From the NCBI RefSeq assembly GCF_041248615.1, contig NZ_CP158426.1: a stretch of DNA of 64,000 bases; one strand, given 5' to 3'. Of this stretch, positions 8,635-64,000 are shown piece after piece. The position numbers and the translations under genes were made by a program. Under the pieces are notes generated by a model, which saw only the letters and a program-made list of their open reading frames with translations, was not told the DNA's origin and searched no databases. Within the stretch, counting starts at the first letter, position 1. Each line of letters opens with the position of its first letter. The DNA is from Escherichia coli (GTDB taxonomy: Bacteria; Pseudomonadota; Gammaproteobacteria; Enterobacterales; Enterobacteriaceae).

Positions 8635-8961
8635 TCAAGGACGTGACGGCGTAAAGATAAATTGTCTCTTCACTCCCTGACAGGGGCGATTCTTTTCAAA
8701 TCGCCATTTCGCCATGGCCTTCACCACTTCATCACGAAACAAATTATGAGGCTCTGAGCGGAGAAAAACGATCCGTGTCACAGTCCCATCAGCACCAATA
8801 TCGAACTTAACCTCAACCAGCCCCTTGATATAATTTGCTGCAGCATATTCCGGATATCGTGGATACACCGTCACTAATTGCCGGGGCTCATCAGCTTTTT
8901 GCTGCGAGCATCCCACTGCCAGGACAGATAACAGAAAAAGTAGTAAAAGGCGTCTTTTCAT
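8635..8961 (-). CDS. lipoprotein consisting of a TonB C-terminal-domain-like fold
   Basis: start MKRRLLLLFLLSVLAVGCSQQ (signal peptide plus lipobox, Ser at +2); remainder matches the TonB C-terminal domain pattern (YP..A....I.G.V.VKFD...DG.V.......S.P.N.F..EV..AM..WRFE) of E. coli TonB as I recall it. Confidence 0.55.
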   Translation of the reverse strand: MKRRLLLLFLLSVLAVGCSQQKADEPRQLVTVYPRYPEYAAANYIKGLVEVKFDIGADGTVTRIVFLRSEPHNLFRDEVVKAMAKWRFEKNRPCQGVKRQFIFTPSRP

Positions 8962-9444
8962 TTTTATTCCTACGGGTCTTATTCTGACAATATATCCTGT
9001 GTTCCAGACTGCCACATCACCACATCCTGTGCCATTATCTGACTCACATTACATACATCGCATCGGGATACAGTAGTAGCACTTTCTGTAATACAGCTTC
9101 CTGTTTCTTCCACCATCGCACCGGGATAAACCCGCGAATCATTAACGCGGTAAAAACCCGGTGTGCATCGTTTTTAATTATTCCCGCACACTCACGCAGA
9201 AGGAATTCCCCGTCGGGCTACGGTCATGGTTAATGCGGGAATACGGCGACGATACAGCGCAGCTAAAAGGGTAATGGACGGATAGACCGGTTTATTTCAT
9301 TCCACAGGATTCTGAGTGTCCCCAACTTCCTCCAATAGTCTGAGCCCACCTGTGTAGTTTTAATTTTCATCAATCCATTTAACTATCGTTTAATTTTCTA
9401 CACATACGATTCTGCGAACTTCAAAAAGCATCGGGAATAACACC

Positions 9445-9738
9445 ATGAAAAAAATGCTACTCGCTACTGCGCTGGCCCTGCTTATTACAGGATGTGCTCA
9501 ACAGACGTTTACTGTTCAAAACAAACCGGCAGCAGTAGCACCAAAGGAAACCATCACCCATCATTTCTTCGTTTCTGGAATTGGGCAGAAGAAAACTGTC
9601 GATGCAGCCAAAATTTGTGGCGGCGCAGAAAATGTTGTTAAAACAGAAACCCAGCAAACATTCGTAAATGGATTGCTCGGTTTTATTACTTTAGGCATTT
9701 ATACTCCGCTGGAAGCGCGTGTGTATTGCTCACAATAA
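9445..9738 (+). CDS. bor: Bor lipoprotein (serum-resistance family)
   Basis: 97-aa ORF MKKMLLATALALLITGCAQQ..., matches lambda Bor as I recall it. Confidence 0.9.
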   Translation: MKKMLLATALALLITGCAQQTFTVQNKPAAVAPKETITHHFFVSGIGQKKTVDAAKICGGAENVVKTETQQTFVNGLLGFITLGIYTPLEARVYCSQ

Positions 9739-11528: not shown

Positions 11529-12611
11529 ATGAAAAAATTAACAGTGGCAATTTCTGCTGTAGCTGCATCAGTACTGATGGCGATGTCTGCTCAGGCAGCT
11601 GAAATTTATAATAAAGACAGTAACAAGCTGGATCTATACGGGAAAGTTAATGCCAAGCACTACTTCTCCTCTAATGATGCAGATGATGGTGATACTACTT
11701 ATGCCCGTCTTGGCTTCAAAGGTGAAACCCAAATCAACGATCAACTGACTGGTTTCGGTCAGTGGGAATATGAATTCAAAGGCAACCGTGCTGAATCTCA
11801 AGGTTCTTCCAAAGACAAAACCCGTCTTGCATTTGCAGGCCTGAAATTTGGTGATTACGGCTCAATCGATTACGGCCGTAACTACGGTGTAGCATACGAC
11901 ATCGGTGCGTGGACTGACGTTCTGCCAGAATTCGGTGGTGATACCTGGACCCAAACAGATGTGTTCATGACTGGTCGCACTACTGGTGTTGCAACTTATC
12001 GTAACAACGACTTCTTTGGTCTGGTCGATGGCCTGAACTTTGCTGCTCAGTATCAGGGTAAAAATGACCGCACTGACGTAACTGAAGCCAATGGTGATGG
12101 TTTCGGTTTCTCCACTACTTATGAGTATGAAGGATTCGGCGTGGGTGCAACCTATGCTAAATCAGATCGCACTGACGGTCAGGTCGCCTATGGTAAGAGC
12201 AAATTCAATGCCTCCGGCAAAAATGCGGAAGTATGGGCTGCAGGCCTGAAATATGATGCGAACAATATCTATCTGGCTACCACATATTCTGAAACTCAGA
12301 ATATGACCGTTTTTGGTAATAACCATATTGCAAACAAAGCACAAAACTTTGAAGCAGTAGCACAATATCAGTTTGACTTCGGTCTGCGTCCATCTGTTGC
12401 TTACCTTCAGTCAAAAGGTAAAGACCTTGGTGTTCATGGTGACCGAGACTTAGTCAAGTATGTCGATGTCGGTGCTACTTACTACTTTAATAAAAACATG
12501 TCCACTTTTGTTGATTACAAAATCAACTTAATTGACGATAGTAAGTTTACCAAAACAGCTGGTATTGATACCGACGACATCGTCGCTGTAGGTCTGGTTT
12601 ATCAGTTCTAA
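11529..12611 (+). CDS. OmpC/OmpF-family outer-membrane porin (prophage moron, NmpC/Lc type)
   Basis: ORF 11469-12611; start [23 protein letters not shown] at 11529 (signal peptide); porin motifs and C-terminal VGLVYQF; preceded by ~350 bp of AT-rich DNA; opposite in orientation to the late operon. Confidence 0.85.
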
Positions 12612-12799: not shown

Positions 12800-13183
12800 T
12801 CAATTAGAATTATTAGCAACGATATCCATATCTAACCGGATATCTAATGCCATTAACATCCCTTCAATTATGCCCTCAGCCTTCTGTAACCTTTTCCCGA
12901 TATAACCATCCGAGCAGCAATGCTTACTTGCCAGTGACATGAATGTCATACCACATACATAATAATCTACTAATAAATCGTGTAAATCGCTGTTGTTCTT
13001 TTTCAGACGGGCCATGCACCCGCAAATGATCATCGCGTCATCGTCACAACATTGCGGGCGAGATTTTACTTTTGAAGGAATTAATCCCTTAAAACCGGCG
13101 GCAATGGACGACCAGGTCACATCTTCATGATTATTAGCCGCCCACGCACCCCAACGCTCAAGAACCATCTGAATATCACGCAT
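12800..13183 (-). CDS. late antiterminator Q (DLP12 QuuD / phage 21 type)
   Basis: ORF 12800-13198; start [21 protein letters not shown] at 13183 gives 127 aa, matching QuuD-type Q as I recall it. Confidence 0.85.
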
Positions 13184-13405: not shown

Positions 13406-13768
13406 TCATTCATTCCCCATTTCGGTGATGGTCAGTTCCAGCCTCCCACCTTTGGTAACAGGCATCTTCACAACGCGGTAATCAACGACCTGAGCATCAT
13501 CCAGCCAGAAACCTGCTTTAGTGAGTGCGTCAAAAGCGGCTTTTTGCAGATTATCCAGGTCACGGCGACGGCGATCCGGCATGTGGCACTCAATGCGGAT
13601 TTTCACAGGCATAGCCAGGCCGATATCCAGCATTGCGTTTTTAATGATTCGGGCGACGTTATCGCGGTATGCCTGCCCCTCTGCGCTGACGTGCGTGCGC
13701 CCGCGATTATGGCGGTAATAGCGATTATTGCTCGGAGGCCAGGGTAATGTGATGCTGTAGGTATTCAC
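13406..13768 (-). CDS. rusA: Holliday-junction resolvase RusA
   Basis: 120-aa ORF; RusA-family motifs; position between nin genes and Q. Confidence 0.9.
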
Positions 13769-13974
13769 GCCTTAATAACCCCCTCTTTCAGCCACATAAC
13801 CTGTGTTCTCGCCATACCTTCCAGCGCGCATTCTTTTGCATATGCAGCATCGACTTGCTTGGCATGCCCTTTACCGGCAATCTTCTGTATGCGCTAAACC
13901 TAGATAGAATCCACTCTGTGCACATTGAAGCCCGCTCTATGCTTTCTTTCAGGTATTGAAGGGATTGAGATGGG

Positions 13975-14358
13975 CTAAGCATTATTGGCCTCCTGCATCA
14001 GGAGAAAGACAATCATGGCGGCGCGGAGAGGTCTGGTATCAAATATTGGGCTTACGCCTTTTGCATCCACACACCATTCAGTTAACTGGTCTAAGATAGA
14101 AATCCTGTATTTCTCAATAATCGGCCATGAAGCGCTCGGATCATTGCAGTAGTCAGGCAAATGATTTAATGGCTCAAAAGTTGTATCAGCATTTCCGTAA
14201 TACCATTTGTTGGTGTTATTCCCTGATGTTTCCGGTTTACTTGCCCAAAGGCCTTTAAAAATTATGTCTCCTACCATTCTGTTAATTTCAAAATCACTTA
14301 ACTGTGAATAATCCATTGTCATTTCCTCGCACGATATCTTAGCCACCGGATATCCCAC
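13975..14358 (-). CDS. hypothetical nin-region phage protein
   Basis: 127-aa ORF in operon context; start uncertain (MTMDYSQL... possible); no family assigned. Confidence 0.5.
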
Positions 14359-14495
14359 AGGTGGGCTGTGTAATTGAAGGTTTTTACGTCAGATTCTTTT
14401 GGGATTAGCTTGCGTTTATTTCTGGAGCGTTTCGTTGGAAGGTATTTGCAGTTTTCGCAGATTATGTCGGTGATGCTTCGTCGCTGTCGTCTCAT
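14319..14495 (-). CDS. small hypothetical protein with CxxC motif
   Basis: internal start [18 protein letters not shown]... immediately after the methyltransferase stop. Confidence 0.3.
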
Positions 14496-15019
14496 GCAGC
14501 CCTCCTGACGCCCTGCCCGATCGCCATCAATGCCGCTTTGGATACGGTAGTAAACATCCGTCGAGGACTGATGAACGGTCGCCAAATCAGCAGCATGGAG
14601 CCTTTGCTGTTTCCCTTCTTCTCCAGCCCTGTCGATGGTTCGATAAAATTAATCCGTCCATCAGTGATAATACGAACTTCGTCAACACTCTCCAGAGCCT
14701 TGCTGAACCATCCGACAGACATATCCTCTGGCACAAGCATCACTACCGTCTGTCGCTGTTGTATACACTGCTCAGCGGCTTTTTCCACCCACGGCCTGAT
14801 ATTGCTGTACGGTGGGTTATTCCAGATTGCACCGTGGCTTACCCACTCAGAATTGAGCGCGTCGTCGTCCTCAGTTAGCCAGTGAGCGCACAGAGCATTT
14901 TTGTCGCTCGCTGCCGAATCCAGCCAGAATCCAAACTCAATATCCAGTGCATCAAAAAGCCAAAGCGGCGTTTGCCAGCAGTCCTTGTCGTGTGCTGGCG
15001 TATTTGATTTGATAGTCAT
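14492..15019 (-). CDS. phage DNA N6-adenine methyltransferase (Dam-like)
   Basis: ORF 14492-15079; start [22 protein letters not shown] at 15019 directly after the ninB stop; NPPY catalytic motif. Confidence 0.6.
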
Positions 15020-15456
15020 GCAGCCCGATCTCCCCATCGCGCTTTCCATTCGAGAGCCAGTCGCGCTTCGTCTGACCACTTAACGCCACGCTCTGTACCG
15101 AATGCCTGTATAAGCTCTAATAGCTCCGCAAATTCGCTTACACGCATCCTGCTGGTTGACTGGCCTATTACCACAAAGCCATTCCCGGCAAGGTTAGGAA
15201 CAACATCCTGCTGCTTTAATGCTGCGGTAAACACACACTTCCAGCTTTCTGCATCCAGCCAGCGACCATGCCATTCAACCTGACGAGAGACGTCACCTAA
15301 GCAGGCCCATAGCTTCCTGTTTTGGTCTAAGCTGCGGTTGCGTTCCTGAATGGTTACTACGATTGGTTTGGTTGGGTCTGGAAGGATTTGCTGTACTGCG
15401 TGAATAGCGTTTTGCTGATGTGCCGGAGATCGAATTTCAAAGGTTAGTTTTTTCAT
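15016..15456 (-). CDS. ninB: recombination protein NinB
   Basis: start MKKLTFEIRSPAHQQNAIHAV gives 146 aa, matching lambda NinB as I recall it. Confidence 0.85.
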   Translation of the reverse strand: MKKLTFEIRSPAHQQNAIHAVQQILPDPTKPIVVTIQERNRSLDQNRKLWACLGDVSRQVEWHGRWLDAESWKCVFTAALKQQDVVPNLAGNGFVVIGQSTSRMRVSEFAELLELIQAFGTERGVKWSDEARLALEWKARWGDRAA

Positions 15457-15529
15457 GACTTCCCTCTCCCCCAAATAAAAAGGCCTGCGATTACCTGCAG
15501 GCCTGTTATTAGCTCAGTGATGTAGATGG

Positions 15530-15820: not shown

Positions 15821-16518
15821 ACACTTGCTCCTTTCAGTCCTAACTTAGCTTTAATTTCTGCGATCTTCGCCAGCGCCTGAACACGATTTAGAGGTCTGCC
15901 GCCCATGACAGGAAGTTGTTTTACTGGTTCAGGTATCGTCTCACCACGGTTAATTCGCGCTGTCATACAGGTCAGTTCATCGGCAGCCTTGCGTCGTAAT
16001 TCCGCGTCAGTCAGCGCATTGGCCCGCATGTTCTGGTACAGGTTGGTAACCAGCCAGTAGTGCGCGTTCGATTTCCACGGATAAGACTCTGCATCCGGAT
16101 ACAGGCCTCGCTTCCGGCAATACTCGTAAACCATATCAACCAGCTCGCTGACGTTTGGCAGTCCGGCGATAACGGATGCTTCTTCCCGGCACCATGCAAC
16201 AAACTGCCCGGGTGATGGCAGAAATGGTCGATTCTGCCGACGGGCTACGCGCATTCCTGCGTTAACCTGTTCCATTGTGGTGATCCCGTTTTCCCGGAAA
16301 GCCAGAACCCACTGGCGGCGGATTTCGTTCAGTTCGTTCTGGTCACGGTTAGCCAGACTCGCCGGGAAAGTTGCCAGTAACTGGCTGAACACACCGTTGA
16401 TGATCTGCGCTACCTGCTGTACCTGCGGCTTTTCGTCGTACTGTTCCGGCATGTTGTTGGCGATCCGACGCATCTGCTCACGGTCAAAATTAACCATCTG
16501 TGCGGCGATGTTTTTCAT
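15817..16518 (-). CDS. P: replication protein P (DnaB loader)
   Basis: 233-aa ORF matching lambda gpP. Confidence 0.9.
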   Translation of the reverse strand: MKNIAAQMVNFDREQMRRIANNMPEQYDEKPQVQQVAQIINGVFSQLLATFPASLANRDQNELNEIRRQWVLAFRENGITTMEQVNAGMRVARRQNRPFLPSPGQFVAWCREEASVIAGLPNVSELVDMVYEYCRKRGLYPDAESYPWKSNAHYWLVTNLYQNMRANALTDAELRRKAADELTCMTARINRGETIPEPVKQLPVMGGRPLNRVQALAKIAEIKAKLGLKGASV

Positions 16519-17414
16519 AAATCCACCCCGTAAATCCAGTCAGTGTTTGTCAGGTCGAGTTTTGGTTTGCAGGCTGTCACACCTGCCTGTTGCTTGTTAC
16601 GGTTGATTTCGAGCTGGGTCCACTTGTCGCGGAGTTTGGCCGGGCTCAGCACGTTACCGGACCAGAAGTTGTCCTGGCATGCCCAGCGGAACAGTACACA
16701 CATGTCGCGATGGTTACGTCCGTCACGTTCACGCATCAGGCGGATATCGTTAGCCCACCCTGCAAAATTCGGTTTTCTGGCTGATGGCGCGATGGTCTTC
16801 ACCATGTCAAACATCCATTCTGCGGCGGTCAGGTCTTCTGCTGTCCCCCACTTGCTGCCGCTCTGAATTGCAGCATCCGGTTTCACCACAGAAAGGTCGT
16901 TTTCTGGCTGGTCAGAGGATTCGCCAGAATTCTCTGACGAATAATCTTTTCTTTTTTCTTTTGTAATAGTGTCTTTTGTGTCCCCCTGTTTTGAGGGATA
17001 GCAATCCCCCAATTTGAGGGATGTTTTATCCCTCGTTTTAGGGGATTTTCCCTCGTTTTGAGGGATACACCATTCTGAGATGTTTTTATTTGGTCCAAAC
17101 ATGCCGCCTTGCTGCTTGATAATATTCATTCTGACGAGTTCTAACTTGGCTTCATTGCACCGTTTGACGGGTAACTTTGTAATCTCGCTAAGTTGAGAAT
17201 CGGTGATTCTGTCCATTGGTTTATTCCATCCATAGGTTTTACGCAGAATGGCAAGCAGCACTTTAAACTGTCGCTTGGTCAGATCTGCGCCTGAATAAGC
17301 CTCAAGCAGCATATTTGATAGTCTGGCGTAACCATCATCGAGATCTGCCACATTACGCTCCTGTTTGGCAAAGTTACCTCTGCAGAAGTTGAGTATTTTT
17401 GCTGTATTTGTCAT
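16515..17414 (-). CDS. O: replication initiator O
   Basis: 299-aa ORF matching lambda gpO; contains the ori iterons. Confidence 0.9.
   Translation of the reverse strand: MTNTAKILNFCRGNFAKQERNVADLDDGYARLSNMLLEAYSGADLTKRQFKVLLAILRKTYGWNKPMDRITDSQLSEITKLPVKRCNEAKLELVRMNIIKQQGGMFGPNKNISEWCIPQNEGKSPKTRDKTSLKLGDCYPSKQGDTKDTITKEKRKDYSSENSGESSDQPENDLSVVKPDAAIQSGSKWGTAEDLTAAEWMFDMVKTIAPSARKPNFAGWANDIRLMRERDGRNHRDMCVLFRWACQDNFWSGNVLSPAKLRDKWTQLEINRNKQQAGVTACKPKLDLTNTDWIYGVDL
16981..17067. repeat. ori-lambda iterons (four ~19-bp O-binding repeats) with adjacent AT-rich region (16925-16980)
   Basis: four copies of the CCCTC(N4-6)GAGGGA-type inverted motif (e.g. TCCCCCTGTTTTGAGGGATA) inside the O gene. 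Confidence 0.85.
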
Positions 17415-17884: not shown

Positions 17885-18100
17885 TTAAGCGGCTTTGTGT
17901 TCCGGCGGGAACACGTCATCAAGACTGACTTTTGCGCCTAACTTGTTTAGGCACGCAACAAGAGCACGGCATGTTTTAAGGTCTGGGAAGCGACGACCAG
18001 ATTCCCAATGTCCGATAGCTCCCTGTGTGCATCCAACTGCCTTAGCAAGTGTTGTTTGAGAGATATTCAGTGACTCTCGATATTTTCGTAGGTTGCTCAT
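17885..18100 (-). CDS. cro: Cro-like repressor (XRE-family HTH)
   Basis: ORF 17885-18271; start MSNLRKYRESLNISQTTLAKAVGCTQGAIGHW at 18100 gives 71 aa; divergent from cI. Confidence 0.75.
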   Translation of the reverse strand: MSNLRKYRESLNISQTTLAKAVGCTQGAIGHWESGRRFPDLKTCRALVACLNKLGAKVSLDDVFPPEHKAA

Positions 18101-18217
18101 ATGCCCTCCATAGTAAACACGAATAAAAAAATACAATATGTACTTTGCGAATACAAGTAAAAATACACATTGTGCATGGATGGTTCCAGTACAGAGCGTA
18201 ATAATAAGGACATGAAA
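18101..18217. promoter_or_regulatory. OR operator region with divergent PR and PRM promoters
   Basis: 117-bp AT-rich intergenic region between divergent cro and cI; contains TACAATATGTACTTTG, which shares AAGTACATAT with an OL-region element. Confidence 0.6.
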
Positions 18218-18871
18218 ATGAAATGGTATGAACTGGCTAGATCCAGAATGAAAGAGCTCGGCATAACTCAAGAGAAGTTAGCCGAAGAGCTAGGTATGAC
18301 GCAGGGTGGGATTGGACACTGGTTGCGCGGATCTCGTCATCCATCTCTTAGTGATATTGGTGTGGTGTTTAAATACCTTGGTATTGATAACATATCATTC
18401 AACCACGACGGGACATTTTCACCTGTTGGCGAATACTCATCGGCCCCAGTTAAAAAACAATATGAGTACCCTGTTTTTTCTCATGTTCAGGCTGGGATGT
18501 TCTCTCCAGAACTCAGAACCTTTACCAAAGGCGATGCGGAGAGATTGGTAAGCACAACCAAAAAAGCCAGTGACTCTGCATTCTGGCTTGAGGTTGAAGG
18601 TAACTCAATGACCGCACCAACAGGTTCCAAACCCAGCTTTCCTGACGGGATGTTAATTCTGGTTGACCCTGAGCAAGCTGTTGAGCCCGGCGATTTCTGC
18701 ATAGCCAGACTTGGTGGTGATGAATTTACCTTCAAGAAACTGATCAGGGATAGCGGTCAGGTGTTTCTACAGCCACTAAACCCACAATACCCAATGATCC
18801 CATGCAATGAGAGTTGTTCCGTTGTGGGGAAAGTTATCGCCAGCCAATGGCCTGAAGAGACGTTTGGGTGA
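18218..18871 (+). CDS. cI: CI repressor (non-lambda N-terminal HTH domain, lambda-type C-terminal S24 autocleavage domain)
   Basis: ORF 18170-18871; preferred start ATG 18218 (AAGGA 7 nt upstream; ATG 18212 also possible); C-terminal ~140 aa match lambda CI as I recall it; [11 protein letters not shown] parallels Cro TQGAIGHW. Confidence 0.85.
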
Positions 18872-20653: not shown

Positions 20654-20926
20654 ATGTCCAGAAAAACAGAATTTAAAGGCACCGCAGCTTCTCGCCGTAG
20701 AGCTCGTCGCGCAAATCTGCAAAGTCAGGAGGCGATCAGCTCCGACAAGCTACACAGGCCAACCCCTTCACGAGTGGTCTTGCAATGCAAGCTCAAACCA
20801 GCAATGAGAGCAGAAGTGATAACTCTGACAACGTTGACCAGAAAATATGAAGGTTCAACTTGTCTTCCGAACGTAGCTCTTTACGCGGCAGGCTACCGGA
20901 AATCAAAACAACTGACGGCGAGATGA
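20654..20926 (+). CDS. N: N-type antiterminator (P22 gp24-like)
   Basis: ORF 20582-20926; start MSRKTEFKGTAASRRRARRANLQSQ at 20654 (GGAGG upstream); arginine-rich motif; C-terminal LYAAGYRKSKQLTAR resembles P22 gp24. Confidence 0.75.
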   Translation: MSRKTEFKGTAASRRRARRANLQSQEAISSDKLHRPTPSRVVLQCKLKPAMRAEVITLTTLTRKYEGSTCLPNVALYAAGYRKSKQLTAR

Positions 20927-20942
20927 TAAATTCATTTGCTAA

Positions 20943-21524
20943 TTACTTGTTTTTGCCATGCTTATCCTGAGCGATAAGTTCATCCATAAGGCTGTCTGCC
21001 TTCCCGGCAAACCTAATGTAGCACTCATGTCTATAGCTTTCAGGGATAACGAAACGGTCGGTATCAGGATATCCAACAGCAGGAGGCCTTCGAACGAGGA
21101 GTCCTTTTTTGAGCAATGAAATTGATTCATGAGCGCCCTTTTCCGTTTGTAGCTGGTTATTAGCGGCTACAGCGAATGCCAAATACGCTCTTTCTCCAAG
21201 AGTTAACGAATCAAACAAATCTTGCACATATTTTTCTTCTTTAGATTTGCGCTTCTGAGCAGCGAATACCTCAATTCTTTCAGTCACAGCGTGATAAGCG
21301 GAATTAACAACGCCGTTAAGCACATAGCTAACGCAAAACAACAGGATGTAATACATCCAGTAATGAGGAAGGATTTCTGGACTATGCAGGTTTATCCATT
21401 CTTTTACGCTTACCGGCATAACAATAATCAATATGATCAGGATGATTAGCATATGAATCAACTGTTTAAGTGTCATTCCTTGCAGGAAAAAATGCATTAG
21501 TTCCTGCCACCATGAGTTGTTCAT
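20943..21524 (-). CDS. sieB: superinfection exclusion protein SieB-like (membrane protein)
   Basis: 193-aa ORF MNNSWWQELMHFFLQGMTLKQLIHMLIILIILIIVMPV with TM segments, antisense immediately downstream of N. Confidence 0.6.
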   Translation of the reverse strand: MNNSWWQELMHFFLQGMTLKQLIHMLIILIILIIVMPVSVKEWINLHSPEILPHYWMYYILLFCVSYVLNGVVNSAYHAVTERIEVFAAQKRKSKEEKYVQDLFDSLTLGERAYLAFAVAANNQLQTEKGAHESISLLKKGLLVRRPPAVGYPDTDRFVIPESYRHECYIRFAGKADSLMDELIAQDKHGKNK

Positions 21525-21667: not shown

Positions 21668-21754
21668 ATGGAAGAAGAATTTGAAGAGTTCGAAGAGCAT
21701 CCTCAAGATGTGATGGAACAATACCAGGACTATCCGTATGACTACGACTATTGA
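21668..21754 (+). CDS. 28-aa highly acidic mini-ORF overlapping the ral start
   Basis: MEEEFEEFEEHPQDVMEQYQDYPYDYDY; AAGG Shine-Dalgarno-like element upstream; below ORF-track cutoff. Confidence 0.25.
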   Translation: MEEEFEEFEEHPQDVMEQYQDYPYDYDY

Positions 21755-21938
21755 TACAAATCAATGGTGTGGACAATTCAAACGATGCAATGGATGCAAG
21801 CTGCAATCGGAATGCATGGTTAAGCCTGAAGAAATGTTTCCTGTAATGGAAGATGGGAAATATGTCGATAAATGGGCAATACGAACGACGGCAATGATTG
21901 CCAGAGAACTTGGTAAACAGAACAACAAAGCTGCCTGA
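21738..21938 (+). CDS. ral: restriction alleviation protein Ral
   Basis: 66-aa ORF MTTTIDTNQWCGQFKRCNGCKLQSEC..., lambda Ral. Confidence 0.8.
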   Translation: MTTTIDTNQWCGQFKRCNGCKLQSECMVKPEEMFPVMEDGKYVDKWAIRTTAMIARELGKQNNKAA

Positions 21939-22164
21939 TAGTGGCCTTTATTTTTGGCATAAATAACAGAATAAACACTGCACTGTGTATTCATTCCAAC
22001 GAGTGAATACACGGAGCAATGTCGCTCGTAACTAAACAGGAGCCGACTTGTTCTGATTGTTGGAAATCTTCTTTGCCCTCCAGTGTGAGGGCTTTTTTAT
22101 ATGCATACCAATAACGCTTCACTCGAGGCGTTTTCGTTATGCAATCAAATATAAGGAGTTACCC

Positions 22165-22299
22165 ATGATGCACTTTCAGCTCGCGGGTAGCGGCGTCATG
22201 TCCGCTTTCTACCCGCACGAATCTGAATTATCACGCAGAGTTAAACAATTAATCAGAGCAGCAAAGAAACAACTGGAGGCGTTATGCGCAATGAAATAG
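22165..22299 (+). CDS. CIII-like small protein (candidate FtsH inhibitor)
   Basis: 44-aa ORF MMHFQLAGSGVMSAFYPHESELSRRVKQL with AAGGAG 6 nt upstream; loosely resembles lambda CIII. Confidence 0.4.
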   Translation: MMHFQLAGSGVMSAFYPHESELSRRVKQLIRAAKKQLEALCAMK

Positions 22300-22436
22300 C
22301 CATTAATCACCAGATGCTTCGTGCTGCACAGAACAAAGCAGTAATAGCCAGATTTATTGGTGATTCAAAAATGTGGCTTGAAGCAAATAAAGCGATGAAA
22401 TCAGCTATCAACCTTCCGTGGTATCGCAGGAAATGA
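22284..22436 (+). CDS. Kil-like small protein
   Basis: 50-aa ORF MRNEIAINHQMLRAAQNKAVIARFIGDSKMWLEAN...; GGAGG upstream; FIGD.KM motif resembles lambda Kil from memory. Confidence 0.4.
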   Translation: MRNEIAINHQMLRAAQNKAVIARFIGDSKMWLEANKAMKSAINLPWYRRK

Positions 22437-22517
22437 GTTTTACAGATAACTGGTCAGACGAAGAATTCATTCGTCAGATGAAAGAAATGCTCAATCAGCA
22501 CAAAGAACAGGAGAAAG

Positions 22518-22829
22518 ATGATGATTCTGACTCTGAATGATAAGCGTGAAATATCGCAAATAATCGCAAGTTTTACTGATGAAGATTACGAACGAATCAA
22601 CAGTGAAGTTGATCGCCTCTGCAAACGTTGCGACCCAATAAGCGAAATGCTTCGCTCATATAAACCAGATGAACACACTAAGGACGCTATCGACTGGCTG
22701 GAAGATGATGACTGTAACTATCAGGAAAAAGCCGCTGAATGGTTCTGGGATGCAATAACCGAAAGAGTTAAGGCTGAATATGCCTTCGCAATATTCAAAC
22801 GCAGACACATTTATGGAGAAGCAGCATGA
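22518..22829 (+). CDS. hypothetical acidic protein, overlapping the recT start
   Basis: 103-aa ORF; stop overlaps the recT start; no family assigned. Confidence 0.5.
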   Translation: MMILTLNDKREISQIIASFTDEDYERINSEVDRLCKRCDPISEMLRSYKPDEHTKDAIDWLEDDDCNYQEKAAEWFWDAITERVKAEYAFAIFKRRHIYGEAA

Positions 22830-23737
22830 GCAATATCGTTGAATTCGTTAAACAGCAGGAGCAGTTATTCTGCGGGGCATTGACTGAACAGACGGTGACA
22901 TGGGCTAAGGAAAGCCAGTTTGCAATTCAGTATTTCCAGAAAAATGATTACCTGGCTAAAACAGCACTGGCAAATCCAACCAGCGCACAGAACGCCATCA
23001 TCAATGTTGCGGCGATCGGTATCACCTTAAACCCGGCTAGCAAACTGGCTTATCTGGTTCCGCGCGACGGCATGGTTTGCCTTGATATCAGCTATATGGG
23101 ATTGCTACATATTGCAATGGAGTCTGGTGTTATCTCATGGGGTCAGGCAAAGCTTGTTCATGCTAACGATACTTATGAGTCAAACGGACTTGATAAAGCA
23201 CCAACCCATAAATACAACGCCTTCGGTGATCGTGGCGATATCGTTGGTGTTTACTGCACAGTTAAGACGCCAGCAGGTGATTATCTAACGGAAGAGATGA
23301 GTCTGGCTGAAATTGAGGCTGTAAGGAAAACAAGCAAGGCGGCATTCAGCGATAAAGGACCATGGGTAAATCACTGGAATGAGATGGCGCGAAAGACGGT
23401 CGTAAAGCGTGCAAGCAAGTATTGGCCTAAGGCATCACGTCTTGATAGTGCTATTCACGTACTAAACGAAGAAGAAGGTGTATGGACTGAACCAGTTATG
23501 CCTCACAAATCAGAGGAAGATATCCGCGAAGATGAACGGAAACGCCAGCAGGAAATAACGGATAAAGCACAACTTCTTTGTGATGAAATGGCTCAGGCTG
23601 AAAACATGGATGATTTGAAGAGATATTTTGCAGAAGCATATCGCCTGACATCTGGAATGAAATTGCAGCAGAACATACAAGCCATTTACATAGAATGCAA
23701 AGCGAAACTGGAGGTTGCCAGTGAGCAAACTATATGA
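22826..23737 (+). CDS. recT: RecT-family single-strand annealing recombinase
   Basis: 303-aa ORF with GPWVNHWNEMARKTVVKRASKYWP, paralleling the E. coli RecT motif. Confidence 0.8.
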   Translation: MSNIVEFVKQQEQLFCGALTEQTVTWAKESQFAIQYFQKNDYLAKTALANPTSAQNAIINVAAIGITLNPASKLAYLVPRDGMVCLDISYMGLLHIAMESGVISWGQAKLVHANDTYESNGLDKAPTHKYNAFGDRGDIVGVYCTVKTPAGDYLTEEMSLAEIEAVRKTSKAAFSDKGPWVNHWNEMARKTVVKRASKYWPKASRLDSAIHVLNEEEGVWTEPVMPHKSEEDIREDERKRQQEITDKAQLLCDEMAQAENMDDLKRYFAEAYRLTSGMKLQQNIQAIYIECKAKLEVASEQTI

Positions 23738-24203
23738 AATTGCCAATGAATACGCAAAATTGATGGATTCAGATTTAGAACCAGAGATGATTGCTGACAC
23801 AATAGAAGGCATGGAAGGAGAATTTACCGATAAAATAGAACAACTTCTTTCCGTCATTAAAAATGAATCTGGTTATGCCGAACGCCTCAAGGAAGAGGCA
23901 AAGTCACTAAATGAGCGAGCCGCAGTAATTCAAAACAAGATTGACAGCATCAAATCATATATAGCGTCATCGCTTGAAATGGTTGGAAAGAAAAATATTC
24001 GAGCAGGTATTCACCAGGTAACAATCCGCAAACCGTCAGAAACTGTAGAAATCATCGACTCAAGCGCCCTTCCTCCTGAATACGTTGAGTTCGAAACGAC
24101 AATTAAAGCCGACAAACTGGCAATCAAACACCAACTAAAAGCAGGAATAAATATCCCCGGTGCTCAACTCAAAGTTGGAAAACCTTCACTTCTTATCAAA
24201 TAA
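23715..24203 (+). CDS. hypothetical phage protein (possibly siphovirus Gp157-like, often next to recT)
   Basis: 162-aa ORF in operon context; family call from memory only. Confidence 0.4.
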   Translation: MPVSKLYEIANEYAKLMDSDLEPEMIADTIEGMEGEFTDKIEQLLSVIKNESGYAERLKEEAKSLNERAAVIQNKIDSIKSYIASSLEMVGKKNIRAGIHQVTIRKPSETVEIIDSSALPPEYVEFETTIKADKLAIKHQLKAGINIPGAQLKVGKPSLLIK

Positions 24204-24214
24204 CGGTATCGCCT

Positions 24215-24529
24215 ATGAAAAAGACTCCATGGGAGAAATGGGAAGTCGATTTCTTGCGCGAGGTAGCGGCGACAATGCCAGTTGAAGTTATCGCAGAAAA
24301 ACTGGAAAGGACTGAAAAAGCAGTAATGGCGAAAGCAACAAGGATTGGCGCTGACATTGTTAGCCGACTTCGTGGAAGACGATGGACAAGAGCCGAAGTA
24401 TCACTTTTCGGTAAGTTCTCAGCAGAAGAAATAGCAATTGCAACCTGCCGCTCAATTTATTCAGTAAGAGCTATGCGATACAAGCTAAAAAAACTCGATG
24501 AAGAAAGAGCAGGCATACGAATAAATTAA
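24215..24529 (+). CDS. hypothetical protein
   Basis: 104-aa ORF in the early-left operon. Confidence 0.5.
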   Translation: MKKTPWEKWEVDFLREVAATMPVEVIAEKLERTEKAVMAKATRIGADIVSRLRGRRWTRAEVSLFGKFSAEEIAIATCRSIYSVRAMRYKLKKLDEERAGIRIN

Positions 24530-24545
24530 CATGGAGTAATTAACA

Positions 24546-24827
24546 ATGAAGCTAAACATCGACCTCGGAAAATACGTTATTACCGGAACCAAACACGACC
24601 TGATTCTTAGTGAAAGAGGAATTATCAAAGAAGGCGAGAATGCAGGGAAAGAAACACTAAGCCGTATCGGTTATTACAGCAAGTTTGAGCATCTGGTTAA
24701 AGAGTTATGCAACCGTGAAATCCTGTTATCTCAGGCGCAGACGCTACAGGATATTCAGCAGCATATCGAGACTTTAGGTATGTCACTTAGCATGGCTATT
24801 GACCAGTTAGTGGAGAGTAAATCATGA
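24546..24827 (+). CDS. hypothetical protein
   Basis: 93-aa ORF in the early-left operon. Confidence 0.5.
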
Positions 24828-24984
24828 GAGGACTTGCATACAATCCCGGAATTCTTCCGGCAGAAATGATTATTCGCCAACGCGTAAAGCCAATGCCATC
24901 GAGAGAGGAATTGCTTAAGAGAAATTCTTTTCCATCAGTGAATCAAAACAAATATCTGAATGCGATGTGGCGGAGTGGGAAGAA

Positions 24985-25416
24985 ATGAAACAAATGTCAC
25001 TAATTGAGATGGATGGTTTTCTGAAAGGTAAATGCATCCCAAGTGATTTAAAGGTTAACGAAACAAACGCTGAATATCTGGTGCGTAAATTTGCTGAAGC
25101 GGAGGCCAAGTGCGCGGCGCTGGCAGCGGAGAATGCGGGGCTGAAGTCTGGCGCTATGGGCGAAATCAAGGTTATCAACCGTGGAGGGCAGGCATATTGC
25201 GTAAAAGATGGAGTGCAAGTTAATCCCATGTATGCAAGAGGGTGGAATGACTATCGCGCAAAGTCTCTGCAATCAGACACCCAAGCCACCGATGCTTTCC
25301 TGGCTGAAGTACGGGCGCAGGGCGTGGAGATGTTTGCTGAGTGCGCATACACACTTGAACATCATGATCACGCAGTAGCCTTCGCCGCTGAGCTTCGCAA
25401 AGGAGGCAACCAGTGA
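24985..25416 (+). CDS. hypothetical protein
   Basis: ORF 24967-25416; likely ATG start at 24985 ([11 protein letters not shown]...). Confidence 0.5.
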
Positions 25417-25958
25417 GTGTAACGGTTGAAAAGATTGATGTGTTGTCATTCGTTATAACCGGTGCAGAGCGACTAGATCCGGTTCGAGTGATGATTGAAA
25501 ACTACGAACCTGGTAAGGGAAGAATCACCATCACCTGCTACGGAAAGGCGTGGACTGCGGCTTGGTTTGCTATGGGCGGTGATGATGTGCAGACGTTCAT
25601 TAAGCGGGTCAGCAACGAGTATCTAATCGGCTATTTCGACCCACAACTGCGAAGCACGGTCGACGATGACAACGATGCAAATCTGCTTTTCGTGAAGTCA
25701 GAAATCATAAAGTTACGAAGAGAGAGAGAAATAGACGCCGTACTGGCTCGCGAAATGTGGGACGAGGCGGAAAACGCCGATGACGTAAAAGAAAGCTGCT
25801 GCTGTTTCGGCGTCGGTAACAAACTACTGAATCTCTTTGGTGATGATCCGTGGTATGCCGACTGGCCAACGGTACCAAACCCGAAATACCAGTATCTGGA
25901 ACGCGTACTTAATGCAGTGAGAGACGGTCTTAAGCAAATAGAGAAGGTGGAACCATGA
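25413..25958 (+). CDS. hypothetical protein
   Basis: 181-aa ORF, GTG start with AGGAGG 7 nt upstream; start overlaps the previous stop. Confidence 0.55.
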   Translation: MSVTVEKIDVLSFVITGAERLDPVRVMIENYEPGKGRITITCYGKAWTAAWFAMGGDDVQTFIKRVSNEYLIGYFDPQLRSTVDDDNDANLLFVKSEIIKLRREREIDAVLAREMWDEAENADDVKESCCCFGVGNKLLNLFGDDPWYADWPTVPNPKYQYLERVLNAVRDGLKQIEKVEP

Positions 25959-26254
25959 CTGTATGTCTTATTGATAAACGTCGACGTGGGCAACAAATAC
26001 CATCTGTTGAAATGCCGAATCACACATGGTTTTGCGTACTTGATATCGATGGCATGGATAAGTTTGTTGACACTCGTCATTACTGCGATACCGCAACAGC
26101 TACTCCGGCGAAAGCAAAGAAAATGGCTGCTCTGATAGAAAACTGGACTCCACCTGATGGTTGGTGCAATGGGAATGATCGAGATTGGCACGAAAAAATG
26201 AAGGGCTATATCTGCGATTTTTTACGTAAATGCAACGGATTCAGGGTGATGTGA
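25955..26254 (+). CDS. hypothetical protein
   Basis: 99-aa ORF; ATGA overlap with the previous ORF. Confidence 0.5.
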   Translation: MTVCLIDKRRRGQQIPSVEMPNHTWFCVLDIDGMDKFVDTRHYCDTATATPAKAKKMAALIENWTPPDGWCNGNDRDWHEKMKGYICDFLRKCNGFRVM

Positions 26255-26255
26255 C

Positions 26256-26888
26256 ATGAGCAAGATTGACTATCAGGCACTGCGTGAAGCGGCAGAGCGT
26301 GCAATTCCGGCAATGGAACGCCTGTTAATGTTGCCAGCTGATGATGATTTGTTAAGTGAACAGGAACTTAAAGATTACGGTGTGGATATTGATGCGCTCA
26401 ACGCCTTCAAATTTCTGACCGGACCAGAAACCGTGCTGGCGCTGCTGGATGAACGGGAAAGAAACCAGCAATACATAAAACGCCGCGATCAGGAGAACGA
26501 GGATATTGCGCTAACGGTAGGGAAACTGCGTGTTGAGCTTGAGGAAGCAAAATCAAAACTCAACGAGCAACGCGAGTATTACGAAGGTGTTATCTCGGAT
26601 GGGAGTAAGCGTATTGCTGAACTGGAAGCACGGGAAATAAAACCAGCCAAAGGTGAAGTTCTTGTCGTTGTTTCTGGTTTTACTGGTTGCGGAAAAAGCG
26701 CCATTGCCGGGGAAATAGAAATCGCGATGAAGGCTATTGGTGTACCGGTTAAGTGGACTAATGGCGATGCAGAAAAGCGCATGACTGGCGCTGACTGGCT
26801 GACAGCGATTGAGATGTACAAACCAACTGTGCGCATCGTGGAAGTTAATGTGCCACGCGCCGCTGGCATTCGCATCAAAGGAGACTGA
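26256..26888 (+). CDS. hypothetical protein with predicted coiled-coil middle region
   Basis: 210-aa ORF. Confidence 0.5.
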   Translation: MSKIDYQALREAAERAIPAMERLLMLPADDDLLSEQELKDYGVDIDALNAFKFLTGPETVLALLDERERNQQYIKRRDQENEDIALTVGKLRVELEEAKSKLNEQREYYEGVISDGSKRIAELEAREIKPAKGEVLVVVSGFTGCGKSAIAGEIEIAMKAIGVPVKWTNGDAEKRMTGADWLTAIEMYKPTVRIVEVNVPRAAGIRIKGD

Positions 26889-26889
26889 T

Positions 26890-27087
26890 ATGGATAAAAA
26901 CACCACTGCTTACTGGAATCTGTCACTTGATACCGAATGCCCAAAATGCGGTCACAATTTCGATCTGCTTTGCGATCCAGATTTCTGGGAATTTTCTGGA
27001 GCAAAACAGGCATGTGAAGAAATAAAAGGTTACGAAACATGCTGTCCAGAATGTAACCATGAATTTAAAACAGATTTTGTGTATTGA
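26890..27087 (+). CDS. small zinc-ribbon-like protein
   Basis: 65-aa ORF MDKNTTAYWNL... with CPKCGH and CCPECNH cysteine pairs. Confidence 0.45.
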   Translation: MDKNTTAYWNLSLDTECPKCGHNFDLLCDPDFWEFSGAKQACEEIKGYETCCPECNHEFKTDFVY

Positions 27088-27097
27088 GGCATAACGA

Positions 27098-28285
27098 ATG
27101 ACCACTTTTACTAAAGAACAATTAATAGAGATGATTAAGCGCAATATAACGGTTATGGATCGTTATCCTGATTTAGTAACTGCACAAATGGATCTGGAAG
27201 TATACAAAATTGCGCTGGCATCACTGGAAGCAGAACCAGTTGCTTATATTTTCAAACATCCGGCCGGGAAATTATTCTGGGCTTTAACGGATGAAAGCAA
27301 TAAAGAGCAACCGGACGTTATTCCTGTTTATGCTGACTCACCTGCGCCGGTTGTGCCGGATGAAATAGACGTAAACGATGTGCCAAGGGCGGTGACATAT
27401 TTCAAGACACACAGAGATTGTTACGCAGATGGCTGGAACGCCTGCCGCGCCGCCATGCTTCAGTCCGGAAACTTTCGGGAAAACAAGAATTCGTCAACCA
27501 ATAATTTTCGGGAAATCGCGGAAACGTCAACCAACTATCCGGTAATTCCTAGTGAGGTGTTGTCCGCAATCCAGAAGGTTGCCAAGATTCGTGCCGATTT
27601 CGATGATTTTGACGGTGACAGGCGAGGTATCGGTGATTGTCTGGATGAGGCTGAGCAAGAGCTTATCGTTACCATTAACAAATATGCCAGTCAGTTGGCA
27701 GCAGAACCTATAGCGCCTAATGACGTTCGAGAGCAGCAGACAGCCGTTCCGCCAGTTCCAGAAATACAGGCTGATGTCGCGCAAGCAATTGAAAATCTCA
27801 AGCAGAAGTTAGTGGAATGCAATCGCTATAACTACTGTGCAGATGCAGTTAAAGGCGTAGAGGATGCCTGCCGTGCTGTTAGCTATAGCCAAGCCGACAA
27901 TCAGCCAGCATCTGGCAACCAGGCTGCCGAATCCAATCGCGATAATGAGTGGACTGGCAATCCTGATATTGATAACGCCATCATCATGCTCGACCGCATA
28001 GATACGCTGGAAAATTGCGATGATGACCGTATTGAGGCTGTTAAGGCTGTTTTGCGTAGACTGGCTGGCAACTATCCGGTAACTCCGGATAGTTGGATAA
28101 GCTGTAGTGAGCGAATGCCCGCTCAAGATGATTGGATTTTAATTTATTCAAAGCACGGCGAGTATATGGCAGGACAGGTACAAGGGGAATACGTGGAGTT
28201 GAGCGACGGCACTTTATCGTGGTTAGGGAACGCCTTGTACTGGATGCCTCTACCAGAACCGCCGAAGGAGGTTAACCGTGGCTAA
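27098..28285 (+). CDS. hypothetical phage protein with C-terminal DUF551-like domain
   Basis: 395-aa ORF; C-terminal WISCSERMPAQDDWILIYSKHGEYMAG typical of DUF551 from memory. Confidence 0.5.
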   Translation: MTTFTKEQLIEMIKRNITVMDRYPDLVTAQMDLEVYKIALASLEAEPVAYIFKHPAGKLFWALTDESNKEQPDVIPVYADSPAPVVPDEIDVNDVPRAVTYFKTHRDCYADGWNACRAAMLQSGNFRENKNSSTNNFREIAETSTNYPVIPSEVLSAIQKVAKIRADFDDFDGDRRGIGDCLDEAEQELIVTINKYASQLAAEPIAPNDVREQQTAVPPVPEIQADVAQAIENLKQKLVECNRYNYCADAVKGVEDACRAVSYSQADNQPASGNQAAESNRDNEWTGNPDIDNAIIMLDRIDTLENCDDDRIEAVKAVLRRLAGNYPVTPDSWISCSERMPAQDDWILIYSKHGEYMAGQVQGEYVELSDGTLSWLGNALYWMPLPEPPKEVNRG

Positions 28286-28966: not shown

Positions 28967-29203
28967 ATGTCTCGACTAATCACTTTACAGGACTGGGCTA
29001 AAGAAGAATTTGGGGACTTAGCACCAAGTGAGCGAGTTCTGAAAAAATACGCGCAAGGGAAAATGATGGCCCCACCCGCTATAAAAGTTGGTCGCTACTG
29101 GATGATTGACCGAAATTCCCGTTTTGTAGGAACGCTTGCAGAACCGCAACTCCCAATAAACGCAAACCCAAAACTCCAACGGATAATCGCTGATGGCTGC
29201 TAG
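28967..29203 (+). CDS. xis: excisionase
   Basis: 78-aa ORF overlapping the int start; Xis/AlpA-like KVGRYWMI motif. Confidence 0.75.
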   Translation: MSRLITLQDWAKEEFGDLAPSERVLKKYAQGKMMAPPAIKVGRYWMIDRNSRFVGTLAEPQLPINANPKLQRIIADGC

Positions 29204-30335
29204 ACCCCGATCTCACAAAATCTCTATACCCAATTTATATTGCAAATTAGATAAGCGAACCGGAAAGGTATATTGGCAATACAAACATCCACTATCCGGT
29301 CGTTTTCATAGCTTAGGAACTGATGAGAATGAAGCAAAACAAGTTGCTACTGAAGCAAATACCATTATTGCTGAACAACGTACCCGACAAATATTAAGCG
29401 TCAATGAGCGTCTAGAAAGAATGAAAGGCAGGCGCTCAGACATTACGGTGACAGAATGGCTTGATAAATATATTTCTATCCAGGAGGACAGGCTGCAACA
29501 TAATGAACTAAGACCCAACTCCTATCGGCAAAAAGGCAAACCCATTCGTCTTTTCCGTGAGCATTGTGGAATGCAACACCTCAAGGATATTACCGCACTT
29601 GATATTGCCGAAATAATTGATGCTGTAAAGGCTGAAGGTCATAACAGGATGGCGCAAGTCGTGAGAATGGTGTTGATCGACGTCTTCAAAGAAGCACAAC
29701 ACGCAGGACATGTTCCGCCAGGATTTAACCCAGCGCAGGCAACAAAACAACCGCGAAATCGAGTAAACCGCCAAAGATTATCACTGCCCGAATGGCAGGC
29801 AATATTTGACAGCGTAAGCAGACGGCAGCCCTATTTAAAATGCGGGATGCTACTTGCTCTTGTCACTGGACAACGTTTAGGCGATATCTGCAATTTGAAA
29901 TTCTCTGATATCTGGGACGACATGTTGCACATTACTCAGGAAAAAACCGGTTCAAAACTTGCTATTCCGCTTAACCTGAAATGCGATGCTCTGAATATTA
30001 CCCTTCGTGAAGTTATATCTCAGTGCAGGGATGCTGTTGTTAGTAAATATCTGGTCCATTACCGTCACACTACCTCTCAAGCAAACAGAGGAGACCAGGT
30101 GTCTGCAAATACTCTTACAACGGCTTTTAAAAAGGCCAGGGAAAAATGTGGCATAAAATGGGAGCCAGGAACTGCGCCCACATTTCATGAGCAGCGATCT
30201 CTGTCAGAACGGTTATATCGGGAACAGGGTCTGGATACGCAAAAGTTGTTAGGTCATAAATCCAGAAAAATGACCGACCGATACAATGATGATCGTGGTA
30301 AAGACTGGATTATCGTAGATATCAAAACAGCATAG
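29193..30335 (+). CDS. int: tyrosine integrase (e14/phage 21 icd-targeting type)
   Basis: 380-aa ORF with C-terminal catalytic region (HEQRSL...LGHKSRKMTDRY); adjacent to the icd 3' end. Confidence 0.9.
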   Translation: MAARPRSHKISIPNLYCKLDKRTGKVYWQYKHPLSGRFHSLGTDENEAKQVATEANTIIAEQRTRQILSVNERLERMKGRRSDITVTEWLDKYISIQEDRLQHNELRPNSYRQKGKPIRLFREHCGMQHLKDITALDIAEIIDAVKAEGHNRMAQVVRMVLIDVFKEAQHAGHVPPGFNPAQATKQPRNRVNRQRLSLPEWQAIFDSVSRRQPYLKCGMLLALVTGQRLGDICNLKFSDIWDDMLHITQEKTGSKLAIPLNLKCDALNITLREVISQCRDAVVSKYLVHYRHTTSQANRGDQVSANTLTTAFKKAREKCGIKWEPGTAPTFHEQRSLSERLYREQGLDTQKLLGHKSRKMTDRYNDDRGKDWIIVDIKTA

Positions 30336-31870: not shown

Positions 31871-32014
31871 ATGCGGCAATTCATAATCTCTGAAAATACC
31901 ATGCAAAAAACTTCTTTTAGACCAAAGACAGTATTTTTCAGACCTTCAAATAAGGCATTAAATATCAATAAGTTACACCAGTTTTTAAGCAATAAAAAAA
32001 ACCACCAGAGATAA
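31871..32014 (+). pseudogene. displaced 5' fragment of rluE (first ~17 codons, then unrelated sequence)
   Basis: ATGCGGCAATTCATAATCTCTGAAAATACCATGCAAAAAACTTCTTTTAG encodes MRQFIISENTMQKTSF, which matches the E. coli K-12 RluE N-terminus as I recall it; the reading frame then diverges. Confidence 0.5.
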
Positions 32015-32160
32015 CTAACAGGATGCTATTTGGTCAAAATTTGACATTACTCGACTCAGCGACTATCTCACTTTGAGCACTATTGGGAAAATTATCAAAA
32101 GTCATGGTTGAAGCGACAAGCAACGAGTAAATTATGGCATCCCCCCTTTTTGAGGTTCAC

Positions 32161-32247
32161 ATGAAACGCTTTGCACTGATAGCTGTGAAACTCGTTGCCT
32201 TTACTGGTTCTGCATCTGCTGCAACCGAAGAAATCAACTTCAAGTAA
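32161..32247 (+). CDS. 28-aa mini-ORF resembling an isolated signal peptide
   Basis: MKRFALIAVKLVAFTGSASAATEEINFK with GAGG 5 nt upstream; same reading frame as the downstream 149-aa ORF, separated by two stop codons. Confidence 0.3.
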   Translation: MKRFALIAVKLVAFTGSASAATEEINFK

Positions 32248-32280
32248 CAGAAACACTATATAACAATGGAGTGTTGACAA

Positions 32281-33065: not shown

Positions 33066-33397
33066 AATAAAAAAGAAGGCTGCGATGCCCCTCTTATTAC
33101 TGCTGTTGATGGTAGTGGTAAAGCATCATCCTGAACTTGAACAGTGAAGTGCTGTCACCCATCAGTAATACAGAAACACTATTTTTCATACCAGTATTTA
33201 TTCAATTCATCAATGTAAAATGTGTTCATTGGGCCATATTTATCACCATGCAGCCACACAACCGCTGCTCACTAACCCAGGTATTGATGAAACCGCGCTG
33301 AAGAGCCTGAACCCTGAACCTCTAACGAGTACCTTAAAAGTCCAATGCAATCCGACACTGTGCTACCCTCTGCGTATAGCTCTATTTGGAATTTACC

Positions 33398-63159: not shown

Positions 63160-64000
<841 letters not shown>

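Follow-up and report, generated by a model that had tools for sequence, protein, structure and literature searches.

A predicted orphan DNA N6-adenine methyltransferase in the nin region of a lambda-like Escherichia coli prophage, one residue away from M.EcoVT2Dam

The methyltransferase gene and its place in the nin region

The window, by which we mean the whole stretch of 64,000 nucleotides of Escherichia coli contig NZ_CP158426.1 that was analysed, carries a lambda-like prophage whose integrase gene (29193-30335) abuts icd (30449-31699); beyond the prophage, to position 64000, the window holds ordinary core chromosome, phoPQ and potABCD through nagZ. Profile matches and the RefSeq annotation together give the operon order cro-cII-O-P-ren-ninB-methyltransferase-ninE-NinX-rusA-Q, all on the minus strand. 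By RefSeq annotation and gene order, the first gene of this pR operon is cro-like (17885-18100, minus strand), and the last encodes a Q antiterminator of the QuuD type (12800-13183, minus strand; PF06530, E = 7.7e-54, and RefSeq), with a truncated DUF1364 remnant and YlcG as further genes downstream of the methyltransferase. RefSeq also places on the plus strand a CI-type repressor of the LexA family (18176-18871) and an N antiterminator annotated as "transcriptional antitermination N peptide" (20654-20926). GATC is somewhat scarcer in the prophage part of the window than in the chromosome beside it (observed/expected ratios of 0.64 and 0.85, respectively), a depletion that is a general trend of E. 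coli prophages (PMC6602927) and says nothing specific about the methyltransferase gene.

ORF calling and translation define the methyltransferase coding sequence as 14492-15019 on the minus strand, with an ATG at 15019, 175 codons and a TGA stop. The original prediction had described a 175-aa ORF with an NPPY motif, and such an ORF is present at exactly these positions, the strand having been left unstated; NPPY, read from the sequence, occupies residues 68-71 (nucleotides 14807-14818). The statement that the gene starts directly after the ninB stop holds as far as adjacency to ninB (15016-15456, minus strand; the recombination mediator gene also called orf; PF05772, E = 1.3e-54, and RefSeq) is concerned. 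The word "after" does not, however, as the ATG (15019-15017) overlaps the ninB TGA (15018-15016) in the form ATGA. The stop codon of the methyltransferase gene overlaps the start codon of ninE (14319-14495, minus strand; PF05322, E = 5.7e-41, and RefSeq) in the same four-nucleotide form (14495-14492), and a GGAGG lies 7 nt 5' of the ninE ATG. Lambdoid nin regions are characterised by ATGA junctions of this kind (PMC8022706), and the gene is placed as a member of the nin module: it shares its strand with the replication genes on one side and Q on the other, and ATGA overlaps occur at both its ends. A longer, 195-aa form with a GTG start at 15079 inside ninB was considered and rejected, as alignment to the family profiles begins at residues 2-4 of the 175-aa form; the ATG at 15019 is also the RefSeq start. 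RefSeq names the product WP_000153286.1, "phage N-6-adenine-methyltransferase" (E. coli NRZ14408, NZ_LT599825.1, 100% identical to the window).

Both ends of the gene coincide with a break in similarity to lambda. The 11-mer GGGCTGCATGA occurs in two copies, one closing ninB (15016-15026, minus strand) and the other closing the methyltransferase gene (14492-14502, minus strand), and the identical 11-mer is found at the ninB/ninC junction of lambda. The window ceases to resemble lambda immediately past GGGCTGCATGA at the end of ninB, and the resemblance returns a few bases into ninE; in lambda, ninC and ninD occupy the slot that the methyltransferase gene fills here. Because lambda similarity breaks and resumes at the GGGCTGCATGA junctions, we read the methyltransferase gene as a cassette in the ninC-ninD slot whose boundaries lie exactly at gene junctions. 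When a synthetic 500-nt junction query was used, no uninterrupted ninB-ninE junction was seen among the best 30 phage records (394 others ranked lower), and in these 30 the query matched as two pieces spanning 1,024 nt with the methyltransferase gene between them.

The gene is common. At an identity of at least 95%, the 528-bp sequence is present in 1,565 of the 5,426 complete E. coli genomes, at 100% in Nissle 1917 and in the type strain, and likewise in 244 phage records, among which HK140, Sf101, wild lambda-like isolates and numerous phages of the Stx1 and Stx2 kinds are represented. In the free phages ev207 and ev017 the gene is 100% identical; more distant relatives were found by tblastn in about 1,900 phage records from Escherichia, Klebsiella, Vibrio, Lactococcus and other hosts. 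With over a quarter of the complete E. coli genomes carrying it, the gene has little weight as a discovery.

Family membership and predicted fold

Profile searches assign the 175-aa protein to a single family. It matches PF05869, "DNA N-6-adenine-methyltransferase (Dam)", with E = 3.7e-65 and 219.1 bits (cutoff 28.1) over profile positions 1-167 of 169, and the NCBIfam equivalog TIGR01712, "phage N-6-adenine-methyltransferase", with 265.6 bits (cutoff 97.05) over positions 1-165 of 165, both far beyond chance. It also matches PHROG 111, "DNA methyltransferase", and the best PADLOC model is "orphan methyltransferase". In a Pfam search extended to E = 10, PF05869 was the sole family, with neither PF02086 nor PF01555 appearing. 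Among the neighbouring genes (ninB, ninE, NinX, the DUF1364 remnant, rusA, YlcG and Q) none is a restriction enzyme gene, and the methyltransferase is therefore an orphan. The earlier proposal that the nin region encodes an orphan DNA N6-adenine methyltransferase is thus borne out by PF05869, TIGR01712, PHROG 111, PADLOC and the ninB/ninE neighbours.

An alignment of 28 sequences, which takes in the Dam enzymes of phage T1 and of Haemophilus phage HP1, has 20 invariant and 36 near-invariant positions, and the window protein carries the family residue at each of them. The invariant residues include NPPY (N68-P69-P70-Y71, followed by S72 in the window protein), T17, P18, L33, D34, W59, D99, S101, W104, R122, F125 and K139, and A36 is nearly invariant. 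An AlphaFold model built from 28 homologues is confident (pLDDT 90, pTM 0.88) and comprises one alpha/beta domain with the Rossmann-type fold of class I methyltransferases and no separate target-recognition domain. In the model, a helix at 19-29, which follows the conserved W-x-T-P, leads into a strand at 31-36 that ends in the invariant L33-D34; a short strand at 46-48 and a strand at 64-68 that runs into NPPY come next, and alternating helices and strands then lead to a C-terminal helix. The position of NPPY after strand 64-68 is like that in other N6-adenine methyltransferases, and sequence, alignment and model agree in marking its codons (14807-14818, minus strand) as catalytic motif IV, the flipped-adenine pocket. 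Alignment and model likewise mark L33-D34-S35-A36-A37-S38 at the end of the first strand (codons at 14906-14923, minus strand), which by analogy with M.TaqI-type enzymes would be the AdoMet-binding motif I.

Comparison of the model with solved structures gave the highest figure, 10.4, for the mRNA cap adenosine methyltransferase PCIF1/CAPAM, which is thus the nearest solved fold, followed by M.TaqI (9.9), M.BseCI (9.5), MmeI (9.3), CamA (8.8), the Type I HsdM subunit 3lkd (8.8), E. coli Dam (8.1), T4 Dam (7.4) and DpnM (7.4). The linear order of the motifs and the model without an inserted or appended recognition domain fit a minimal M.TaqI-like (gamma-type) core. The M.TaqI-type (gamma-class) enzymes and PCIF1/CAPAM are nevertheless only 14-17% identical to the window protein, are 380-700 aa long and own separate target-recognition or helical domains that the window protein lacks. 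PF05869 has no member among the solved structures.

The relation to the cellular Dam enzyme is one of predicted activity and not of descent. E. coli Dam, T4 Dam and DpnM (alpha class, PF02086) share with the window protein the same reaction, a Rossmann fold, a (D/N)PPY motif and, as we infer, the same target, G-m6A-TC. They show no sequence similarity to it, however, since no PF02086 match was obtained up to E = 10, and the recognition domain that alpha-class enzymes carry between the AdoMet-binding region and DPPY is absent from the window protein. A phmmer search against all PDB sequences, with E values up to 1, returned neither Dam nor T4 Dam nor DpnM, and its only matches were at chance level (SdiA, E = 0.31). 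The label "Dam-like" given to the protein in the original prediction is therefore apt for function but not for descent: a sequence match to E. coli Dam is lacking, and the predicted fold is nearer to the M.TaqI type.

The experimentally studied founders of PF05869 are T1 Dam (M.EcoT1Dam), at 33% identity (E = 8e-27), and HP1 Dam, at 38% (E = 5e-33), both of which are homologous to the window protein over the whole catalytic core. Common to all three are W-x-TP, LD-x-AA, NPPYS, D99/S101/W104 and R122-x-x-F; in T1 Dam, an N-terminal extension of 45 residues and an insertion of 14 bring the length to 237 aa. Genome context and regulation of the T1 and HP1 genes are unlike those of the window gene, T1 being a virulent phage and HP1 a P2-like one.

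Several other assignments were examined and set aside. Membership in the beta class (M.EcoGII-like, PF01555) was rejected, with no PF01555 match up to E = 10; the putative AdoMet strand (31-36) precedes NPPY (68-71), the reverse of the beta-class order, in which DPPY lies near the N-terminus and the AdoMet motif near the C-terminus. M.EcoGII and Hia5/M.HindVII resemble the window gene in being orphan prophage m6A enzymes, from enterobacteria or Pasteurellaceae, and are silent in the lysogen (PMC7544214, PMC4996451). Their descriptions set them apart, as M.EcoGII belongs to the beta class (PMC7544214) and the Hia5 study makes no mention of the VT2, HP1 and T1 enzymes, and both probably belong to a different family from the window protein. 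The silent-prophage "Dam homolog" M.EcoMIV of the ST131 strain EC958 was likewise rejected as the same gene, for it carries PF02086 and is hence of a different family.

Near-identity to M.EcoVT2Dam and the probable GATC target

The sole methyltransferase annotated in phage VT2-Sakai is orf32 (16434-16961; NP_050531), which encodes M.EcoVT2Dam and lies between ninB and ninE, and its product is identical to the window protein at 174 of 175 residues (99.4%). The single difference is at residue 51, Asp in the window and Ala in VT2-Sakai, which is the most variable position of that stretch and is A, E, Q, R, D or S among homologues. The two genes agree in lying between ninB and ninE, in length and in the overlaps of start and stop codons. 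The M.EcoVT2Dam protein is also encoded by Phi24B and Min27, and variants of it at 99% are known from many further lambdoid phages, HK97 and those of the 933W type included; M.EcoVT2Dam is carried by an Stx phage, whereas the window gene sits in a lambda-like element at icd of a non-Stx E. coli (NRZ14408). With a RefSeq name, Pfam and NCBIfam models of its own and a single residue separating it from a reported enzyme, the gene is ordinary and already known.

What M.EcoVT2Dam methylates is told by later papers. A methylome study of STEC describes it as "known to target 5'-GATC-3'", citing Radlinska and Bujnicki 2001 (PMC6602927), and two papers from Radlinska's laboratory state that Dam-like activity "has been shown" for VT-2, among other phages (PMC7139368, PMC7556043). 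The basis of the 2001 result was presumably an assay of the DpnI/MboI type; a DpnI/MboI test in a dam-negative host was later used by the same laboratory for other phage methyltransferases (PMC7556043). T1 Dam, too, is a GATC-modifying enzyme (PMC4996451). Because M.EcoVT2Dam is cited as GATC-specific and the window protein is homologous to the GATC-modifying T1 Dam, the earlier view that the target specificity is unknown is out of date. To the extent that these papers' citations of M.EcoVT2Dam carry over to a protein identical at 174 of 175 residues, the target of the window enzyme is effectively known and is most probably GATC.

Strict specificity for GATC is not guaranteed, since M.Btr190III, a prophage relative that is 35% identical to T1 Dam, was cloned and found to methylate GATC and many related sites (PMC4996451). 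That off-target activity, a model with no target-recognition domain, the lack of a solved structure for the family and PCIF1 as the nearest fold together make it conceivable, if rather improbable, that the enzyme recognises GATC by a mechanism without precedent, for instance by way of the 120-140 hairpin and the C-terminal helix or as a dimer, or else acts as a relaxed, broad anti-restriction methylase at lytic levels.

The second of these possibilities, that the enzyme at lytic levels methylates GATC along with related or unrelated adenine contexts and so affords broad protection against restriction, deserves separate consideration. A single 175-aa domain such as that of the model would offer little surface for reading four base pairs, and a lack of specificity is known from other prophage-borne adenine methyltransferases, in E. 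coli and Serratia (PMC7544214, PMC7556043). Conversely, papers that cite the VT2 enzyme, which is 99.4% identical, call it GATC-specific (PMC6602927, PMC7139368). Moreover, in STEC strain 95NR1, which has two identical copies of M.EcoVT2Dam and one of a further Dam homologue, M.EcoGV, no extra m6A motif was attributable to a Dam homologue (PMC6602927), a result to be read with the proviso that the genes may be silent in the lysogen. Finally, the non-specific M.EcoGII (beta class) and Hia5 do not evidently belong to the PF05869 family, and the window protein has no other Pfam methyltransferase match. On balance we regard relaxed specificity as unlikely and retain GATC as the most probable target.

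A further alternative is an inactive passenger gene, one that belongs to the mosaic of the nin region but has no current function. The genes of this region are non-essential in lambda (PMC8022706), which has ninC and ninD in the same slot, and the neighbouring DUF1364 gene is a truncated remnant. The methyltransferase frame, by contrast, is intact and keeps the family residue at every invariant and near-invariant position noted above, the gene is conserved at no less than 95% identity across the 1,565 E. coli genomes and 244 phage records, and its near-identical VT2 counterpart was active when cloned, as the citing papers have it (PMC6602927, PMC7139368). We consider a gene without function to be highly implausible. 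Taken as a whole, the reading that we favour is that the gene encodes an orphan AdoMet-dependent DNA N6-adenine methyltransferase of the T1/HP1/VT2 "Dam" family, an allele of M.EcoVT2Dam that most probably methylates GATC, to which we assign a probability of roughly 0.85.

Probable expression in the lytic cycle and proposed role

The regulatory features of the operon point to expression after induction. A consensus scan identified a terminator-like hairpin with a T-run between ren and ninB (15481-15504, minus strand); read from 15504 to 15481, it consists of AGGCCTGC...GCAGGCCT followed by TTTTATTT, with an 8-bp stem that contains six GC pairs. By its position, which is that of tR2 in lambda, this hairpin would be the tR2 counterpart. 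No convincing promoter of the methyltransferase gene's own was detected, the number of promoter-like matches (7) being no greater than that expected in shuffled sequence (8.1). For Phi24B, whose dam product is 100% identical to NP_050531 of VT2-Sakai and one residue from the window protein, the dam gene (CM2) was among four tested genes with expression linked to the lytic cycle (PMC3342100). By analogy, the window gene is probably expressed in lytic growth and not in the lysogen, and silence in the lysogen is expected because the gene lies in a pR operon that, on the lambda paradigm, is repressed by CI, and behind a terminator-like hairpin.

These considerations bear on the suggestion, made in the original prediction, that the enzyme might alter host gene expression in the lysogen, an epigenetic role in which added methylation would change the expression of host or prophage genes. 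The authors of the Phi24B study did consider that phage Dam might supplement host Dam in lysogens, and the Phi24B protein was detected with an antiserum raised against lysogen cultures (PMC3342100); in addition, stable lysogeny of 933W reportedly requires host Dam (Murphy et al. 2008, as cited). On the other hand, the CI-repressed pR operon, the terminator-like hairpin, the want of a convincing promoter and the lytic expression in Phi24B (PMC3342100) all argue against it, and in STEC 99.9% of GATC sites already carry methylation from host Dam, whether or not extra phage copies are present (PMC6602927), so that little is left to change. We therefore judge such a role in the lysogen to be very unlikely. 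The same saturation would mask a difference between the methylomes of a lysogen and a cured strain, because host Dam already modifies 99.9% of the sites, and with the gene expected to be off and host Dam saturating, a negative lysogen methylome would be no refutation of activity.

We propose instead that the enzyme acts on phage DNA during lytic growth. CI repression would keep the gene silent in lysogenic cells, as one would expect from the lambda paradigm, and after induction it would be transcribed from pR once N allows read-through of the tR2-like terminator, a step suggested by the consensus scan and again by lambda. Translation would be coupled with that of ninB and ninE. In the product, as family and fold suggest, the target adenine would be flipped into the NPPY pocket and methylated there, with AdoMet in the N-terminal LDSAAS strand-loop as the donor. 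Its likely, though less certain, role would be to top up GATC methylation on fast-replicating phage DNA, in which case progeny would be fully GATC-modified whatever the capacity of host Dam and would withstand restriction enzymes specific for unmethylated GATC.

Work on related phages provides a background for such a role. P22 and lambda virions are undermethylated, as replication outruns host Dam (PMC8022706), and in lambda virion DNA 46% of GATC sites were methylated after growth on wild-type E. coli, compared to 77% with extra Dam (bioRxiv 10.1101/2025.08.29.673000). More GATC methylation of lambda left the mutation frequency unchanged in the same study, which makes a role in mismatch repair less likely. 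Authors from Radlinska's laboratory regard the role of phage Dam enzymes as poorly understood (PMC7556043). The interest that remains in this gene thus lies in the benefit that a second GATC methylase may bring to a phage in a Dam-positive host, and in the way in which a 175-aa enzyme without a recognition domain would read its site.

Boundaries of the methyltransferase cassette in the nin region

The mosaic boundaries of the phage N-6-adenine-methyltransferase gene (14492-15019, minus strand) coincide exactly with the ATGA overlaps that join it to ninB and ninE. Both ends of the gene carry an identical 11-mer, GGGCTGCATGA, on the minus strand, one copy at the ninB/methyltransferase junction (15016-15026) and the other at the methyltransferase/ninE junction (14492-14502). 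The same 11-mer is also present in lambda, at the ninB/ninC junction. In lambda, ninC and ninD occupy the slot held here by the methyltransferase gene.

A strong terminator-like hairpin followed by a T-run lies on the minus strand between ren and ninB (15481-15504), at the position of lambda tR2, which implies that N antitermination is required for expression of the nin genes. Between the NinX-family gene and rusA, we found a DUF1364 pseudogene (13765-13854, minus strand), truncated and missing its N-terminus, that is probably a scar from recombination inside the nin region.

Relatedness to the ATCC 11775 prophage and accessory genes

Positions 1-22100 of the prophage match a prophage of E. 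coli ATCC 11775 at 99.8% identity. Beyond this stretch the early-left region is replaced (22100-28265), with Bet/Exo giving way to a RecT/Gp157 recombination module, accompanied by several hypothetical genes. ATCC 11775 also lacks ~1.5 kb between icd and rluE (31921-33419), an interval that here contains one gene each of the STM2901 and DUF1493 families.

An OmpC/NmpC-like porin gene (11529-12611, plus strand) lies within the prophage, in the interval from Q to the lysis genes and on the opposite strand; by analogy with nmpC of DLP12, it is likely a lysogenic-conversion 'moron'. Adjoining the lysis cassette are iss, a bor-type gene for the increased serum survival lipoprotein (9445-9738, plus strand), and a small TonB-family gene (8638-8964, minus strand).

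GATC density and restriction evasion

GATC, the probable target of the methyltransferase, occurs at a density of 3.09 per kb (observed/expected 0.64) in the prophage part (positions 1-30400), lower than the 4.73 per kb (observed/expected 0.85) of the flanking chromosome (30401-64000). One GATC (15027) falls within the ribosome-binding region of the methyltransferase gene itself.

Genes for an antirestriction protein of the Ral family (21738-21938, plus strand) and for SieB (20943-21524, minus strand) are present in the same prophage, so this methyltransferase-bearing element has a second restriction-evasion-related function, in the pL operon.
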